Positions 270 through 10,058 of a DNA stretch of 13,224 nucleotides are shown in pieces. The DNA lies in UHGV virus genome UHGV-0142834; one strand, written 5' to 3'. A model generated the notes under the pieces. That model had not been told where the DNA came from, made no database searches, and saw only the letters and a list, made by a program, of their open reading frames with translations. A program made the translations under genes and the position numbers. Each line of letters starts with the position of its first letter. The stretch's first letter is position 1. Source of the stretch: a virus.

Positions 270-1448
270 ATGGCTATAAGCGACACAAAACTGCGTACTA
301 TTTATGGTAAACCATATTCGGGCCCACAAGAAGTGGCTGATGCCGATGGCCTCAGCGTACGAATTTCACCGAAGGGGGTCATCCAGTTCCAGTACCGCTA
401 TCGCTGGCATGGCAAGCCTAATCGACTTGGGCTTGGTCGATACCCATCCCTGTCTTTGAAGGATGCCAGACAGATCACTGCTGACTTGCGAAAGCTCTAT
501 TTCTCAGGAACGGATCCACGCACCTATTTTGAAGAGAAGGTGGAGAACTCCATGACGGTCGCCCAGTGTCTCGACTACTGGTTCGACAACTACGTCTCTA
601 CAACTCTCAGAGAAAAGACCCAGGCACTTTACCGATCAACGGTTATGAAGCGCATGCATGACGCCTTTCCTAATCGTCCGGCATCTTCTATCACGGTTAA
701 GCAATGGGTTGACCTGCTTACCGAAGAAGAAAGAGATAATCCACGCCGAGCAAGGCAGGTGCTAAGTCAACTAAGATCAGCAATAAGTTGGTGCATGCGG
801 CGTCAGTTGATAGATAGTTGCGCAATTATGAGCATCCAACCAAGGGACTTCGGCTCCCGCGCTGAGGTAGGGGATCGGGTACTGTCGTATCACGAACTGG
901 CTAAGATTTGGCTTGCTATTGAAAGAAGCCGTGCGTCTACGTCAAATAAGCTACTTCATCAGATGCTTATGCTGTGGGGGGCGAGGCTCTCAGAGCTTAG
1001 GCTGGCAACAAAGACAGAATTTGACCTGCTGGACAACGTATGGACCGTACCGAAAGAGCATAGCAAGATGGGTAATGTTATCCGTCGTCCAATCTTCGAA
1101 CAAATTAAGCCTTTTCTCGAAAAGGCCATGACAACGTACAATGATGTTCTTTTCCCTGGAGAAGACATAAACAAACCGATCAGCATCGCTGCAGCCAACC
1201 GATTCGTAAATAGAATAAGGGGAGGGATGGATCTAGGTTACTGGCGAACACATGATTTCAGAAGAACGCTTGTTACACGTCTGTCCGAGATGAATGTCGA
1301 GCCTCATGTTACTGAGCGAATGCTCGGTCATGAACTTGGCGGGATAATGTCCGTGTACAATAAACACGACTGGATAGAGGCTCAGCGCAAAGCTTATGAG
1401 CTTCACGCTGATAAATTGTTCTGGCACATCAGGAGCATTTCTGGTTAA
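270..1448 (+). CDS. int: Tyrosine site-specific integrase, P4-type (N-terminal arm-binding-like domain plus C-terminal catalytic domain)
   Basis: 392 aa ORF with ATG start. N-terminus (GKPYS..DGLSVRISPKG..FQYRYRWHGK..LGLGRYPSLSLKDAR) resembles the P4/IntS-type integrase N-domain. C-terminus has tyrosine recombinase motifs (HDFRRT, LGHELGG..SVYNKHDW with the catalytic Tyr). Confidence 0.9.
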   Translation: MAISDTKLRTIYGKPYSGPQEVADADGLSVRISPKGVIQFQYRYRWHGKPNRLGLGRYPSLSLKDARQITADLRKLYFSGTDPRTYFEEKVENSMTVAQCLDYWFDNYVSTTLREKTQALYRSTVMKRMHDAFPNRPASSITVKQWVDLLTEEERDNPRRARQVLSQLRSAISWCMRRQLIDSCAIMSIQPRDFGSRAEVGDRVLSYHELAKIWLAIERSRASTSNKLLHQMLMLWGARLSELRLATKTEFDLLDNVWTVPKEHSKMGNVIRRPIFEQIKPFLEKAMTTYNDVLFPGEDINKPISIAAANRFVNRIRGGMDLGYWRTHDFRRTLVTRLSEMNVEPHVTERMLGHELGGIMSVYNKHDWIEAQRKAYELHADKLFWHIRSISG

Positions 1449-4129: not shown

Positions 4130-4557
4130 TGGTTGCCTCCTTTGCGAAGCTGGGCAGCAAAGTCACGGATAGTGTCATCAAGGTCTGGGCACAACAGATG
4201 GTCAGCAAACATCTCTACCACCTGCGCCCGTACTTCAGCCAGGAAAGCATCGGTGGCTGGGGTTTCAGTAACATCATCTTCCCATTCGCCAAACTCCTCA
4301 CGACAAAAGTCATTAAATTCCTTCTCAGATTGCTTAAGCGAGGTATTTTCTGCAGCCATCTTCGCGCATTTAGCCTCAAGGTTATCAATCGTGATTCCAG
4401 CAGAACGACACTCCCGCAACGCCGTTTCCAGTTTTGATTCAAGCTCACCGAACTTACGCACCAGATATTCAGCGTTTGTTTCGTTAACCTTTAAATCTCG
4501 TGGGATGCATTTACCTTTCAGAAATCCATCCATCCCAATTAGTGACATTTGTTTCAT
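4126..4557 (-). CDS. Hypothetical acidic coiled-coil phage protein (143 aa from the ATG at 4557)
   Basis: The track ORF starts with GTG at 4575. The ATG at 4557..4555 overlaps the TGA of the upstream 54-aa ORF (ATGA coupling) and has GGAG/GGGAAG upstream. Start codon choice is uncertain. Confidence 0.6.
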
Positions 4558-4718
4558 TTCTTCCCACTCCGCCACATCGCATTCAGATATTTGTTTTGAT
4601 TCACTGACGGAAAAGAATTTCTCTTAAGTAATTCCTCTCTCGATGGCATTGGCTTTACGCGCTGGCGAATAATCATTTCTGCCGGAAGAATGCCGGGATT
4701 GTATGCAAGTCCTCTCAT
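4554..4718 (-). CDS. Hypothetical small protein (54 aa), not on the supplied ORF track
   Basis: Hand-translated: [57 protein letters not shown] at 4718..4716 preceded by AGAGGA with an 8-nt spacer. Its stop overlaps the downstream ATG (ATGA). Confidence 0.4.
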
Positions 4719-4734
4719 GGTAAATTCCTCTTTG

Positions 4735-5049
4735 TTAATTTATTCGTATGCCTGCTCTTTCTTCATCGAGTTTTTTTAGCTTGTATCGCATAGCTCTTAC
4801 TGAATAAATTGAGCGGCAGGTTGCAATTGCTATTTCTTCTGCGGAGAACTTACCGAAAAGTGATACTTCGGCTCTTGTCCATCGTCTTCCACGAAGTCGG
4901 CTAACAATGTCAGCTCCAATCCTTGTTGCTTTCGCCATTACTGCTTTTTCAGTCCTTTCCAGTTTTTCAGCGATAACTTCAACTGGCATTGTCGCCGCCA
5001 CTTCGCGCAAGAAATCGACTTCCCATTTCTCCCATGGAGTCTTTTTCAT
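4735..5049 (-). CDS. Small putative DNA-binding protein with two tandem GcrA/Myb-like HTH-like repeats
   Basis: 104 aa, ATG at 5049. Internal duplication visible by eye: [40 protein letters not shown] versus [35 protein letters not shown]. The RBS is weak. Confidence 0.55.
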
Positions 5050-5060
5050 AGGCGATACCG

Positions 5061-5543
5061 TTATTTGATAAGAAGTGAAGGTTTCCCAACCTTGAGTTGA
5101 GCGCCTGGGATATTTATTCCTGCTTTTAGTTGGTGCTTGATTGCCAACTTGTCGGCTTTAATTGTCGTTTCAAACTCAACGTATTCAGGAGGAAGGGCGC
5201 TTGAGTCGATGATTTCTACAGTTTCTGACGGTTTGCGGATTGTTACCTGGTGAATACCTGCTCTAATCTTTTTCTTGCCAACCATTTCAAGCGATGACGC
5301 TATATATGATTTGATGCTGTCAATCTTATTTTGAATTACTGCGGCTCGCTCATTCAGTGACTTTGCCTCTTCCTTGAGGCGTTCAGCATAACCAGATTCA
5401 TTTTTAATAATGGAAAGAAGTTGCTCTATTTTATCGATAAATTCTCCTTCCATGCCTTCTATTGTGTCAGCAATCATCTCTGGCTCTAAATCTGAATCCA
5501 TCAATTTTGCGTATTCATTGGCAATTTCATACAGTTTGCTCAC
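5061..5543 (-). CDS. Siphovirus Gp157-family protein, a recombination-module accessory protein
   Basis: Track ORF begins at a TTG placed directly after GGAGG, which is implausible. The GTG at 5543..5541 has GGAGG at a 6-nt spacer, giving a 160-aa product. N-terminal LYEIANEYAKLMDSD.. and C-terminal ..PPEY...IPGAQLKVGKPSLLIK match my recollection of the Gp157 family pattern; it sits directly downstream of recT. Confidence 0.6.
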   Translation of the reverse strand: MSKLYEIANEYAKLMDSDLEPEMIADTIEGMEGEFIDKIEQLLSIIKNESGYAERLKEEAKSLNERAAVIQNKIDSIKSYIASSLEMVGKKKIRAGIHQVTIRKPSETVEIIDSSALPPEYVEFETTIKADKLAIKHQLKAGINIPGAQLKVGKPSLLIK

Positions 5544-6429
5544 TGGCAACCTCCAGTTTCGCTTTGCATTCTGCGTAAATGGCTTGTACGTTCTGCTGCA
5601 ATTTCATTCCAGATGTCAGGCGATATGCTTCTGCAAAATATCGCTTCAAATCATCCATGTTTTCTGCCTGAGCCATTTCATCACAAAGAAGTTGTGCTTT
5701 TTCCATAATTTCCTGCTGGCGTTTCCGTTCATCTTCGCGGATATCTTCCTCTGATTTGTGCGGCATAACTGGTTCCTGATGCATACCTTCATCTTCGTTA
5801 AGCAGGTGAATGGCATTATCCAGTCGCTGGGCTTTAGGCCAGTATTTGCTGGCGCGTTTAACTATTGTTTTACGCGCCATCTCTTCCCAGAATGTCTTCC
5901 ACGGTCCATTCTTTGCCTTGCTCGTTGCTTCCACAGCTTTAATTTCTGCCAGACTCATTTCTTCAGTGAGGTAGTCACCATCTGCTGTTTTAACCGTACA
6001 ATAACCACCAACAATAGAGCCTCGCTCACCAAATGCGTTGTATTTGTGGGTTGGTGCTGAATCAAGGCCGTTTGATTCATAGGTGTCGTTTGAGTACACC
6101 AGTTTGCATTGCCCCCACTTAATTGATCCTGTCGACTGTGCAAGGTGAAGTAATCCCATATAGCTGATATCAAGGCAAACCATGCCGTCGCGCGGAACTA
6201 GATAAGCAAGTTTGCTGGCCGGGTTTAAGGTGATGCCGATCGCCGCAACATTGATGATGGCGTTCTGTGCGCTGGTTGGATTTGCCAGTGCCGTTTTAGC
6301 CAGGTAATCGTTTTTCTGGAAATACTGAATTGCAAACTGGCTTTCCTTAGCCCATGTCACCGTCTGTTCAGTCAATGCTCCGCAGAATAACTGCTCCTGC
6401 TGTTTAACGAATTCAACGATATTGCTCAT
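5527..6429 (-). CDS. recT: RecT-family single-strand annealing recombinase
   Basis: 300 aa, ATG at 6429 with GGAG at an 8-nt spacer. The motif NGPWKTFWEEMARKTIVKRASKYWP closely parallels Rac RecT NGPWVTHWEEMAKKTAIRRLFKYLP. The ATG overlaps the upstream gene's TGA (ATGA). Confidence 0.85.
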   Translation of the reverse strand: MSNIVEFVKQQEQLFCGALTEQTVTWAKESQFAIQYFQKNDYLAKTALANPTSAQNAIINVAAIGITLNPASKLAYLVPRDGMVCLDISYMGLLHLAQSTGSIKWGQCKLVYSNDTYESNGLDSAPTHKYNAFGERGSIVGGYCTVKTADGDYLTEEMSLAEIKAVEATSKAKNGPWKTFWEEMARKTIVKRASKYWPKAQRLDNAIHLLNEDEGMHQEPVMPHKSEEDIREDERKRQQEIMEKAQLLCDEMAQAENMDDLKRYFAEAYRLTSGMKLQQNVQAIYAECKAKLEVASEQTV

Positions 6430-6737
6430 GCTGCTTCTCCAAAAATGTGTCTGCGCTTGAATATTGCGAAGGCATATTCAGCCTTAACTCTTTCGGTTAT
6501 TGCATCCCAGAACCATTCAGCGGCTTTTTCCTGATAGTTACAGTCATCATCTTCCAGCCAGTCGATAGCGTCCTTAGTGTGTTCATCTGGTTTATATGAG
6601 CGAAGCATTTCGCTTATTGGGTCGCAACGTTTGCAGAGGCGATCAACTTCACTGTTGATTCGTTCGTAATCATCATCGGTAAAACTTGCGATGATTTGCG
6701 ATATTTCACGCTTATCATTCAGAGTCAGAATCATCAT
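6426..6737 (-). CDS. Hypothetical acidic protein in the gam position (possible host-nuclease inhibitor analogue)
   Basis: 103 aa, ATG at 6737 (or 6734) preceded by AGGAG with a 5-nt spacer. Rich in Asp/Glu and Trp (DDDYER, DWLEDDDCNYQEKAAEWFWD). Translationally coupled to recT. No similarity to lambda Gam noted by eye. Confidence 0.6.
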   Translation of the reverse strand: MMILTLNDKREISQIIASFTDDDYERINSEVDRLCKRCDPISEMLRSYKPDEHTKDAIDWLEDDDCNYQEKAAEWFWDAITERVKAEYAFAIFKRRHIFGEAA

Positions 6738-6822
6738 CTTTCTCCTGTTCTTTGTGCTGATTGAGCATTTTGTTCATCTGACGAATGAATTCTTCGTCTG
6801 ACCAGTTATCTGTAAAACTCAT
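6715..6822 (-). CDS. Small ORF (35 aa) in the kil position, not on the supplied ORF track
   Basis: Hand-translated: MSFTDNWSDEEFIRQMNKMLNQHKEQEKDDDSDSE. Its ATG (6822..6820) overlaps the TGA of the CIII-like gene (ATGA), mirroring the lambda cIII-kil overlap. Its 3' end overlaps the start of the 103-aa gene in another frame. Confidence 0.35.
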   Translation of the reverse strand: MSFTDNWSDEEFIRQMNKMLNQHKEQEKDDDSDSE

Positions 6823-6989
6823 GGACGGACTTGTTGTTTCAAAATATCCCAAAGCTTTTCGAGCAAACTTTTCATTCTTGGTTGTTTAAAGTCTGCTCCG
6901 GTTAAAATATTTTTTCGTGAATGCTGTACCGATAAAATCGGGTTGAAAGGGCGAACCGATGCCGCCCCTGCAATAGCGAACTGTTGCAT
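6819..6989 (-). CDS. CIII-like protein (candidate FtsH inhibitor, 56 aa)
   Basis: Start placed at the ATG 6989..6987 with AAGGAG at a 6-nt spacer; the track ORF starts further up at a TTG. N-terminus MQQFAIAG resembles lambda CIII MQYAIAG, and the C-terminal SLLEKLWDILKQ resembles the CIII amphipathic helix. Comparison is from memory. Confidence 0.45.
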   Translation of the reverse strand: MQQFAIAGAASVRPFNPILSVQHSRKNILTGADFKQPRMKSLLEKLWDILKQQVRP

Positions 6990-7050
6990 AGGATGCTCCT
7001 TCTGTTTGATTGCATAACGAAAACGCCTCGAGTGAAGCGTTATTGGTATG

Positions 7051-7079
7051 CATATAAAAAGGCCCTCACACTGGAGGGC
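7051..7079 (-). terminator. Intrinsic terminator for leftward transcription (tL-like), between the accessory cassette and the cIII-like gene
   Basis: Minus-strand hairpin GCCCTC-cagtgt-GAGGGC (7062..7079 on +) followed on the minus strand by CTTTTTATAT. The stem is only 6 bp. Confidence 0.45.
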
Positions 7080-7183
7080 AAAGAAGATTTCCAATAATCA
7101 GAACAAGTCGGCTCCTGTTTAGTTACGAGCGACATTGCTCCGTGTATTCACTCGTTGGAATGAATACACAGTGCTTACTCGTA

Positions 7184-7654
7184 CTAATAAAATACCCAAT
7201 TTTCTGTTTCTTGGTTGTGCCCAAAGTTATATTCAATATCTGGTGTTGATGTATCAATATTCTTCATCCCATCAACAAGAGTTGATACAACAGCCAAATC
7301 TTGTTTGATTCTCATTAAATGGTATTTCTTCCGGCGCAATAAACTCTCAATGGCAAGTTTCTTCGTTGGGAATGCAAAAGATCTTTCTGCATTTTTTGCT
7401 ACTTTCTTAATTGCATATCTATTTCTCCTTTGTTTCCATTCCTGTAACCACTGATTTGGTGCTGGTTTAAAATTAACAATCCAATGCGCAGGAACCAACC
7501 ATGCATAATGCTCTGTCTGATGAAAAGCTATATATTGAAGTGCGAATATTTTTATCCCATCTTCTTCAACTGTCGCTTGGAATCTCCAGAAAACAGGCAT
7601 TCCATCATGTTCAGTTTCTGATTCAGGAAAAGGTACGCTCCATGATTTTGTCAT
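7184..7654 (-). CDS. Hypothetical protein (156 aa), accessory cassette gene 2
   Basis: ATG at 7654 preceded by GAGGTG with about a 5-nt spacer. Trp-rich with a basic C-terminal half; no motif I recognise. The local sequence is AT-rich. Confidence 0.65.
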   Translation of the reverse strand: MTKSWSVPFPESETEHDGMPVFWRFQATVEEDGIKIFALQYIAFHQTEHYAWLVPAHWIVNFKPAPNQWLQEWKQRRNRYAIKKVAKNAERSFAFPTKKLAIESLLRRKKYHLMRIKQDLAVVSTLVDGMKNIDTSTPDIEYNFGHNQETENWVFY

Positions 7655-7717: not shown

Positions 7718-8341
7718 CTATGCGGCCTCGGAAGGAAGTCCAATCATCTTATTCAAATCTTCTACCCGTAAAGCAGGAAGTGCTGTACTTGCTTTATCTG
7801 CTTCTTTTGGTAGCAATTCTTTGCTTTCAGGCCAAACTTCAATAAGTCGCTTAACTGTTGTGACTGAGTTCAAAGCACCCCATACATTTGATTCGATATC
7901 CTTTTTCAAGGCTTCAAGGTTTTGTTGCAATGCGCAGATTTCATCAAACCTTTTTGTTATTTCGTGTTCTGCGTCAAACATGCACTTATCTTTGGTTGGA
8001 GTAGGGAGAAATATATCTTCGCCATTGCCGTCTTTCCCATATGAATGCCATCCAACCCTTCTGCCAGATACAGTCAGATAAATTGAAGTAGAACGAAAAT
8101 CGTATGAGTAAAATGAACATCCCATCTTTTCAAGTTCTTCACTTATAGCTACCAACTTGGATGATAACTGATCCACTTCCTCAGTTTTCTTTTTACCGCC
8201 AAACGCAATAACTCTGGCGTCAAGTGCAAGCTGGTTCTTTAACTTTGTTACTTCTTCAAGTTCAGTGAAAACCCCAGACTTAATTAAAGCGTTACGAGCG
8301 ATTTCCTCTTTCATTCTCGTAGTTAAGCGGATTGATGACAT
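7718..8341 (-). CDS. Hypothetical protein (207 aa), accessory cassette gene 1
   Basis: Start placed at the ATG 8341..8339 (MSSIRLTTRMKEE..) preceded by GAGAGG with a 7-nt spacer; the track's longer ORF would overlap the end of N. Coiled-coil-like N-terminal half; no motif I recognise. Confidence 0.65.
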   Translation of the reverse strand: MSSIRLTTRMKEEIARNALIKSGVFTELEEVTKLKNQLALDARVIAFGGKKKTEEVDQLSSKLVAISEELEKMGCSFYSYDFRSTSIYLTVSGRRVGWHSYGKDGNGEDIFLPTPTKDKCMFDAEHEITKRFDEICALQQNLEALKKDIESNVWGALNSVTTVKRLIEVWPESKELLPKEADKASTALPALRVEDLNKMIGLPSEAA

Positions 8342-8352
8342 ATTAATTCCTC

Positions 8353-8679
8353 TCAAATAAGTGGTTTGCTGCCTAATTTCATTTTCTGGCGACCAACACA
8401 AGTCACACCCATTTCACTGCGTGGCTTGCTGTACCATGTGCGCTGATTCTTGCGCTCAATACGTTGCAGGTTGCTTTCAATCTGTTCGTGGTATTCAGCC
8501 AGCACCGTAAGGTCTATCGGATTCAGTGCGCTTTCTACTCGTGATTTCGGTTTGCGATTCAGCGAGAGAATAGGGCGGTTAACTGGTTTTGCGCTTACCC
8601 CAACCAACAGGGGATTTGCTGCTTTCCATTGAGCCTGTTTCTCTGCGCGACGTTCGCGGCGGCGTGTTTGTGCATCCAT
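8353..8679 (-). CDS. N: Antitermination protein N (lambda N-like)
   Basis: Start at the ATG 8679..8677 with AGGAG at a 7-nt spacer. MDAQTRRRERRAEKQAQWKAANPLLVGVSAKPVNRPILSLNRKPKSRVESALNPIDLTVLAEYH.. matches the lambda N arginine-rich motif and most of the protein as I recall it; the C-terminus diverges. Confidence 0.9.
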   Translation of the reverse strand: MDAQTRRRERRAEKQAQWKAANPLLVGVSAKPVNRPILSLNRKPKSRVESALNPIDLTVLAEYHEQIESNLQRIERKNQRTWYSKPRSEMGVTCVGRQKMKLGSKPLI

Positions 8680-8851
8680 CTGGATTCTCCTGTCAGTTAG
8701 CTTTGGTGGTGTGGTAGGTGGGAGACCCATTTCGACCTGCTTCGGCCGACTTCAATTCGGCAATAGTTCCGCAGGCCTCGCCGCTTTACGTGCGACATAT
8801 TCCCATCCATGAACCCTTCACCACACCCCAAAGCCTTCTGCTTTGAATGCT

Positions 8852-9060: not shown

Positions 9061-9357
9061 TCAGAAGCTATTTGGATTGCTTGGCCATTGCGGCAATTTT
9101 GATTCTACTGGGGTGTGTTTGGGTTTGAGTCCGTTTAAGTAGTCAAGGCGCTCAATGGCGCATTTATACATAGCAATCTGCTCTGATGACATGTCGTCGT
9201 ATGACATGCCTTTGAACTTTTTAATTATCGATTCTGCCTCATGTATAAGATTCTTCTTCCTCATGAGTTCAGCTGTATGCTTAGAGCTTACAGGAGATAA
9301 CTTTGCCCATATGAAGCAGATGATTACAACAGCGACTACTATGCCGGGTATAAACAT
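9061..9357 (-). CDS. Small single-pass membrane protein downstream of cI (rexB/sie slot); candidate superinfection-exclusion or defense protein
   Basis: ATG at 9357 gives a 98-aa product starting MFIPGIVVAVVIICFIWAKL (TM helix) followed by a charged soluble tail. An alternative TTG at 9375 overlaps the cI stop. Co-transcribed with cI and followed by a strong terminator. Confidence 0.6.
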   Translation of the reverse strand: MFIPGIVVAVVIICFIWAKLSPVSSKHTAELMRKKNLIHEAESIIKKFKGMSYDDMSSEQIAMYKCAIERLDYLNGLKPKHTPVESKLPQWPSNPNSF

Positions 9358-9371
9358 TTGCTGCTTTATCC

Positions 9372-10058
9372 TCAAACTTTTGGCAGATCGTCCTGGTCTA
9401 CGTACCTGGTGTGTTTCACAATAGCTGAAACAAAATGCATTTTATCAACTTCTTCAACAGGAAGAGTGATTGGGCGGTGATCACTGTTTATGCTACTAAA
9501 CTGATAATCACCGTCTCTTGTTTTGTTCATGATCTTTATCATGTTGTGACCGTCTTTGGTCCTTACAAAGACTTCATCACCTGGATGTACTGGCGTATTT
9601 GGTTCAATAACAACATATTCTCCTGACTGAATCCTTGGCCACATGCTGTCACCCTTAACCTTCAGACCGTAAGCATCTTTATCGCCGCTGTAGATGCTTA
9701 ACCAACCGGATCTGAATTCAATCATATCCACTGAGCCATCAACTCCCAAAACGGCTTCACCAATTACCGGAACAAAACCCGCACGAACGTTACCCGCAAA
9801 CTCAAGATGGTCCGTAGCTCCAGCTTTACCATCTGCAAGCATGTCCATCCATCCGCGTGGGAGATTAAAAGATTTTTCAATTAGTTCCATCATATCGTCA
9901 GCAATGCGTTTTTTTCCGCTTTTTCCTTCCGGATACAGCATTCTGGAAACGTATGATGGTTCCCTTTCTATTCGACGAGCCAACTCTGAGGCCTTTCCAT
10001 TACAGAATCGGTCTCTTATCTCTATCAGCCTTAGTCGTCTTTGTTCGTATTTATCCAT
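9372..10058 (-). CDS. cI: CI-type prophage repressor (N-terminal HTH, C-terminal LexA-like S24 peptidase domain)
   Basis: 228 aa, ATG at 10058. HTH region NGKASELARRIEREPSYVSRML. C-terminal KVKGDSMWPRIQSGEYVVIEP..GDEVFVRTKDGHNMIKIM contains the S24 Ser/Lys dyad context. Divergent from cro with operators between them. Confidence 0.9.
   Translation of the reverse strand: MDKYEQRRLRLIEIRDRFCNGKASELARRIEREPSYVSRMLYPEGKSGKKRIADDMMELIEKSFNLPRGWMDMLADGKAGATDHLEFAGNVRAGFVPVIGEAVLGVDGSVDMIEFRSGWLSIYSGDKDAYGLKVKGDSMWPRIQSGEYVVIEPNTPVHPGDEVFVRTKDGHNMIKIMNKTRDGDYQFSSINSDHRPITLPVEEVDKMHFVSAIVKHTRYVDQDDLPKV

Follow-up and report, generated by a model that had tools for sequence, protein, structure and literature searches.

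A small acidic protein family encoded directly upstream of phage recombination genes probably shares the fold of lambda Gam and is a candidate inhibitor of RecBCD

We analysed a stretch of 13,224 nucleotides (nt) of the virus genome UHGV-0142834 (hereafter, the window), which comes from a lambdoid prophage and spans its immunity and early-left region, focusing on a small gene that directly precedes recT, the gene of a single-strand annealing protein. The best reading of our results is that this gene and its relatives, the family phrog_3486, encode a third, sequence-divergent and previously unrecognised Gam-fold protein, next to lambda Gam and phi80 GamL. We give a probability of about 0.8 to its being a Gam-fold relative and, by analogy, of about 0.6 to its inhibiting RecBCD as Gam does. 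The gene and the signals around it are as follows:

6426..6737, minus strand: gene of the phrog_3486 family, probably of 102 amino acids (aa); acidic, all-helical, with a predicted lambda-Gam fold
6742..6746, minus strand: Shine-Dalgarno sequence AGGAG of this gene, 4 nt from its first ATG and 7 nt from its second
6426..6440, minus strand: coupling junction with recT, with GGAG at 6440-6437, the recT ATG at 6429-6427, and the TGA of the upstream gene at 6428-6426

AlphaFold2 was run first with five close relatives, which gave model scores of 77, 49, 46, 46, and 46 (one confident model of the five); a search of the PDB with Foldseek using the model of this run gave no match. A second run with 37 diverse members superseded it, and all five of its models had a predicted local distance difference test score of 90-91. 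They show helices at residues 6-17, 21-35, 40-47, 54-64, and 66-102, and Gam is the single top structural match among 48,164 chains. The predicted structure is all-helical and colinear with the GamS crystal structure, i.e., it has the Gam fold. Neither sequence nor fold similarity to Ocr or ArdA was found. A Foldseek search against BFVD returned no informative match.

Sequence comparisons reveal a weak signal in the same direction, confined to the C-terminal half of the protein. Aligning the family with the Gam family alignment using hhalign placed residues 53-80 on GamS 57-84 (P 0.0024), and none of 200 column-shuffled Gam alignments matched the observed score of 20.7 (shuffle mean 11.2, standard deviation 2.1). 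With lambda Gam in place of this alignment, hhalign paired DDDCNYQEKAAEWF with DDDVEFQERMAEHI of Gam. The hidden Markov model (HMM) of the family gave a median of 12.8 bits on 95 real Gam sequences, 65 of which scored at least 12, although these sequences are so closely related to one another that they effectively amount to one strong observation. None of the 1,900 composition-matched shuffles reached 12 bits, and reversed sequences scored at most 4.4. In the other direction, the Gam HMM gave at least 7 bits for 7 of the 37 members, compared with 6 of 1,850 shuffles, and the top scorer (P0071) was the member farthest from the window protein. When 1,787 six-frame ORFs (open reading frames) were scored with the same HMM, ORFs of this gene took the top two ranks. 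The similarity is sub-threshold, at 8-14 bits with the purpose-built Gam HMM and 10-16 bits in reverse: the Pfam profile PF06064 matched neither the window protein (E ≤ 0.1) nor any of the 37 members (E ≤ 10). GamL gave less, since its Pfam profile (PF28165) matched neither the window protein nor the 37 members, hhalign gave P 0.16, and a GamL HMM showed no enrichment over shuffles.

These results modify the sequence-only reading, which had seen no visible similarity to lambda Gam and had proposed a non-homologous inhibitor of RecBCD or of restriction enzymes. The first statement is not quite true, because DDDCNYQEKAAE aligns with DDDVEFQERMAE of Gam. As for the proposed function, a RecBCD inhibitor is supported by the fold, the genomic position, and the weak similarity, whereas 'non-homologous' is probably wrong given the predicted Gam fold.

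The genomic position is that of gam. The window order N ... cIII, small ORF, phrog_3486 gene, recT parallels lambda cIII-kil-gam-bet-exo. Phage Dewey has a RecT 86% identical to that of the window, a Mu-Gam-like gene, and the same helix-turn-helix (HTH) gene, and it carries canonical gam (phrog_259) directly 5' of recT. Its DNA is 90% identical to the window over 6432-4334, i.e., starting 3 nt before the recT ATG, and 98% identical rightwards of 6996. A mosaic cassette separates the two blocks:

6433..6995, minus strand: cIII, a 35-aa ORF, and the phrog_3486 gene, with no DNA similarity to Dewey

The counterpart of this cassette in Dewey is cIII-kil-hyp-gam. GamL (phrog_1050) fills the slot in phi80 and TL-2011c, whose RecT is of the type found in the window. 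Three alternative genes are thus found at one position, two of them known RecBCD inhibitors and the third the phrog_3486 family, and the 'gam position' attributed to the gene from sequence is borne out: it is early-left, after cIII, and directly upstream of recT, where Dewey, phi80, and TL-2011c have gam or gamL. No homologue of Gam or GamL accompanies the family in 8 carrier loci, which include two complete phage genomes. We discarded Chi counts as evidence: ENT47670 and PA-1 have 0 Chi sites, which is uninformative by itself because about 1.4 are expected by chance.

Several features of the gene itself had been read correctly from the letters. The ORF listing agrees with a 103-aa ORF at 6426-6737, starting with ATG and lying on the minus strand. 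Translation probably begins at the second ATG (6734) and yields 102 aa: the RefSeq gene has 309 nt, relatives align from the second Met, and the AGGAG is 7 nt away. The ATGA overlap with recT, in which the TGA of the gene shares letters with the recT ATG, can be read off the minus-strand sequence around the junction, GGAGAAGCAGCATGAGC, and a GGAG is embedded in the final codons of the gene (G-E-A-A). The protein is indeed strongly acidic (24 D+E, 15 K+R, pI 4.64, net charge -9), and so is the family (pI 4.4-5.5, net -4 to -14). The description as Trp-rich was overstated: the protein has 3 Trp (2.9%), and the family has 0-4 with a median of 2, so this is no family trait. We also discarded zinc binding via C35-x-x-C38, because both cysteines are unconserved in the family.

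The phrog_3486 family is a small family of phages and prophages of Enterobacterales. The window protein matches its profile over the full length (E 5.7e-59, residues 2-103 on profile positions 1-102 of 102). This was the only PHROGs match, and its function is unassigned; Pfam, NCBIfam, and PADLOC gave no match at threshold, and a sequence search of the PDB gave none that was significant. Searched exhaustively with an HMM, 1.84 billion cluster representatives yielded only 54 clusters at 50% identity, nearly all of stand-alone proteins of about 100 aa. The carriers include phages HK140, mEpX1, Kapi1, Gally, Louie, and SEN22, Cronobacter phage ENT47670, Erwinia phage Midgardsormr38, and Pantoea phage PA-1. 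The gene is found in 268 of 5,426 complete Escherichia coli genomes (~5%) and in 236 IMG/VR contigs, the latter identified with a closer alignment that returned solely relatives of 97-100% identity. With full-length relatives in all these sets, a chance ORF can be dismissed. Conserved residues are spread over the entire protein, among members with identities as low as 24%. Every annotated copy that we examined is labelled 'hypothetical protein', and a full-text literature search with phrog_3486 and related terms found no paper mentioning the family. A more distant member may exist in Edwardsiella phage Edno5, whose 104-aa protein A0A3G3BYC6 is a weak Foldseek match in BFVD (TM score, i.e., template modelling score, 0.46, E 4); in the available text of a survey of 325 lambdoid phages, Edno5 is scored with the same RecT type and no anti-RecBCD gene (PMC12315714).

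At every locus examined, the recombination module begins right behind the homologue, whose stop overlaps the start of the next gene by 1 or 4 nt, and the early-left order with the homologue upstream of a recombination gene is found in at least 12 diverse loci. The overlap comes with a Shine-Dalgarno sequence embedded in the C-terminal E-[AV]-A codons at 9 of 9 diverse loci and at 79 of the 80 IMG/VR loci that we compared (L020-L099). The conservation of E-[AV]-A is explained by the GGAG or GAGG and the start codon of the next gene, which sit in those codons, and for this reason we dismissed it as a functional tail (9/9 loci). Among the 80 IMG/VR loci, RecT comes next with the ATGA overlap in 79, followed by Gp157 in 76. 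The genes that follow the homologue are of several kinds:

Window, HK140, and Kapi1: RecT and Gp157
Pantoea PA-1: the same layout, with a gene annotated just as 'putative recombination protein', then a Mu Gam-like gene
ENT47670, Midgardsormr38, and loci L007 and L013: RecT and a YqaJ exonuclease
SEN22 (locus L003) and locus L012: a RecE-like DUF3799 nuclease
Loci L008-L010: a phrog_2489 exonuclease and Gp157

That the head gene stays the same while its partners change speaks for a role directed at the host rather than at a specific partner. Two of these loci show no recognisable annealing protein. In SEN22 (4309..5699), a homologue 94% identical to the window protein is followed by the DUF3799 nuclease and then by a 189-aa phrog_11517 protein without Pfam match; at locus L008, Gp157 stands beside an exonuclease-like protein.

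In E. coli carriers, the DNA of the gene is 96.5-100% identical, and the adjacent recT falls into two alleles that are about 86% identical to each other, which implies that recombination has taken place at the boundary of the two genes or close to it. Relative to the recT of the window, these alleles are ~86% and 97-99% identical in DNA and 84-88% and 95-100% in protein (E. coli genomes and L020-L099).

What would such a protein do? Gam is described as dimeric: its acidic surface imitates duplex DNA, and a long helix at its N-terminus blocks the channel of RecB for 3' single-stranded DNA (PMC5218532). The phrog_3486 protein is an acidic protein of about 100 aa, all-helical by prediction and made early from the PL operon, with its translation coupled to that of the following recombinase gene. 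By analogy, it most likely acts as a dimeric mimic of a DNA end in the DNA-binding site of host RecBCD, and through this occupation of RecBCD, linear phage DNA and the intermediates produced by RecT would escape degradation. Its net charge and conserved acidic columns (8, 11, 21, 23, 25, 30, 32, 65, 70, 78, 87) resemble those of Gam: the family has a median net charge of -9 for 102 aa, compared with -10 for 98 aa in GamS and -7 for 93 aa in GamL.

The chief doubt about a Gam-like action concerns the N-terminal half of the protein. It is the best-conserved part of the family (D8, E11, I12, I15, I16, D23, E25, I27, V31) and is unlike both Gam and GamL; it lacks the motif MNAY..DR.E..W, and the prediction divides it into two helices (6-17 and 21-35) that lie three residues apart. 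Since the corresponding part of Gam is the one that enters RecB, the binding mode or even the target could differ. A Gam-fold protein acting not on RecBCD but on another enzyme that processes DNA ends or on a defence system (for instance SbcCD, or a defence complex reported to be affected by lambda Gam as well), with Gp157 doing the anti-RecBCD job, therefore has to be weighed, and we regard it as rather unlikely. This alternative can draw on the unrelated sequence and two-helix prediction of the N-terminal half, on the presence of Gp157 in most carriers (76/80 IMG/VR loci), and on the passages of published papers that link Gam to other systems (Kiwa, P2 Old). Yet canonical gam and the same Gp157 gene co-occur in Dewey, so the pairing is neither a sign of different targets nor an argument against a Gam role. 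Moreover, Gp157 is absent from those modules of the family that have RecT and YqaJ or a RecE-like nuclease, and nothing points positively to another target. A similarly doubtful idea is that the protein is a modular derivative of Gam, in which the C-terminal half (dimer and duplex mimic) was joined to a new, highly conserved acidic N-terminal module and redirected from the RecB channel to another nuclease that processes DNA ends or to a complex of anti-phage defence, providing with Gp157 a two-layer counter-defence.

The close association with recombination genes could instead indicate an accessory factor for the phage recombinase or nuclease, acting as mediator or chaperone in the manner of P22 Arf or T4 UvsY. 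The tight translational coupling at every locus would fit this, as would the fact that, in E. coli genomes, the gene and RecT go together one to one (265 with the phrog_3486 gene and 266 with RecT, at at least 80% coverage). However, the downstream partners are non-homologous (RecT, DUF3799 nuclease, phrog_2489 exonuclease), the gene stays nearly constant next to the two divergent recT alleles, matches to UvsY are insignificant (E above 4), and the best structural match is Gam, which makes such a role improbable. Finally, that the ORF has no function of its own and merely delivers ribosomes to recT, its resemblance to Gam being a coincidence between generic helical bundles, is very hard to reconcile with the conservation of residues over the whole length in such divergent members, with a confident model that depended on the 37-sequence alignment, with Gam being both the single top match and the protein expected from the genomic position, and with the shuffle controls that back the sequence signal.

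A Gam-fold RecBCD inhibitor thus remains our preferred interpretation, and comparison with known systems shows where the family would stand. Lambda Gam (GamS; PF06064; PDB 2UUZ and 5MBV), whose Pfam HMM does not detect the window protein, has a single long helix for the RecB channel, whereas the N-terminal ~45 residues of the phrog_3486 protein are unrelated in sequence and predicted to form two helices. In lambda, 5 nt separate gam from bet, whereas here the stop overlaps the downstream start, and the family, unlike lambda Gam, usually co-occurs with a Mu-Gam-like gene. GamL of phi80 and Lula (PF28165; 'host nuclease inhibitor GamL' at NCBI) occupies the same slot next to the same RecT type, is similar in size and charge, and is a precedent for a Gam-fold inhibitor of very different sequence. 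The two differ in what they share with Gam: GamL has its N-terminal MNAY..DRIE..W helix, and the phrog_3486 family its C-terminal half. P22 Abc2, T7 gp5.9, Ocr, and ArdA are comparable as small proteins with which phages counter RecBCD or restriction enzymes, and the last three of these are acidic DNA mimics. P22 Arf is also encoded by a small gene immediately upstream of an annealing-protein gene in a lambdoid recombination module; it is reportedly much smaller, no similarity to it was detected, and the varying downstream partners of the phrog_3486 gene argue against a partner-specific accessory role of the Arf type.

The other genes of the window place this module in context:

270..1448, plus strand: integrase
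5061..5549, minus strand: Sipho_Gp157 gene, 'Mu Gam-like end protection' (phrog_253), overlapping the 3' end of recT by 23 nt
5527..6429, minus strand: recT, single-strand annealing protein (Pfam PF03837, E 2.5e-33), 57% identical to phi80 Rec
6715..6822, minus strand: 35-aa ORF (phrog_17766) with its ATG at 6822, between cIII and the phrog_3486 gene and overlapping the start of the latter
6819..6989, minus strand: cIII, 56 aa (phrog_550, E 1.3e-21), whose TGA overlaps the ATG of the 35-aa ORF
7184..7654, minus strand: phrog_1636 gene
7718..8401, minus strand: gene with an Nmad5 domain ('nucleotide modification associated domain 5', E 3e-70)
8353..8730, minus strand: N
9061..9375, minus strand: 104-aa ORF (phrog_10450) with a hydrophobic N-terminal stretch
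9372..10058, minus strand: cI (Peptidase_S24)

The Gp157 gene downstream of recT had been overlooked by the sequence-only reading and represents a further candidate for the protection of DNA ends by this module. Mu Gam and Sipho_Gp157 represent another anti-RecBCD strategy, with a distinct protein of ~160 aa that reportedly binds DNA ends and not RecBCD. Given this gene, and a recombination module that has no exonuclease gene, the module may carry two countermeasures acting on DNA ends or RecBCD. The genes from 5061 to 6989 form a chain of overlaps (cIII with the 35-aa ORF, by an ATGA at 6822-6819, the 35-aa ORF with the phrog_3486 gene, the latter with recT, and recT with Gp157), and these five genes appear to be translationally linked. 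A scan of 4900-7300 for promoters and terminators gave nothing exceeding shuffle expectation, consistent with one operon. The HTH gene, Ead/Ea22-like genes, and others follow on the minus strand, 3' of the Gp157 gene.

The 35-aa ORF has a strongly acidic tail (…KDDDSDSE). Other phages have, between cIII and the phrog_3486 homologue, an unrelated family of small ORFs (motif A..M.REA…KWA.A), and we dismissed the upstream ORF as a conserved partner because the two versions are not homologous. Farther upstream, the Nmad5 gene lies directly 3' of N in the PL operon and, from its listed TTG start, overlaps the 3' end of N. The 104-aa ORF at 9061..9375 overlaps the cI stop by 4 nt, in the position of lysogen-expressed genes of the rexAB type; PADLOC gave no match for it, and it could be a superinfection-exclusion or defence gene.

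In the available text of their survey, Zheng et al. 2025 distinguish four types of anti-RecBCD genes in lambdoid phages, Gam, GamL, Abc2, and MuGam, and do not mention the phrog_3486 gene; HK140 is scored there as having an annealing protein with MuGam as sole inhibitor, and SEN22-type phages as having no inhibitor and 0/0 Chi sites (PMC12315714). If the family is a fifth sequence type of inhibitor, the SEN22-type and HK140-type classes would need re-scoring, and so would phages with RecT and an exonuclease, such as ENT47670 and Midgardsormr38. About 5% of the complete genomes of E. coli would then carry an unannotated RecBCD inhibitor. This matters in that RecBCD inhibitors determine if a phage depends on a recombinase of its own or on the Chi-dependent recombination of the host; they also set off guard-type defences and serve in recombineering. 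With its divergent N-terminus, the family would in that case be a natural experiment for learning how proteins of the Gam fold engage RecBCD.
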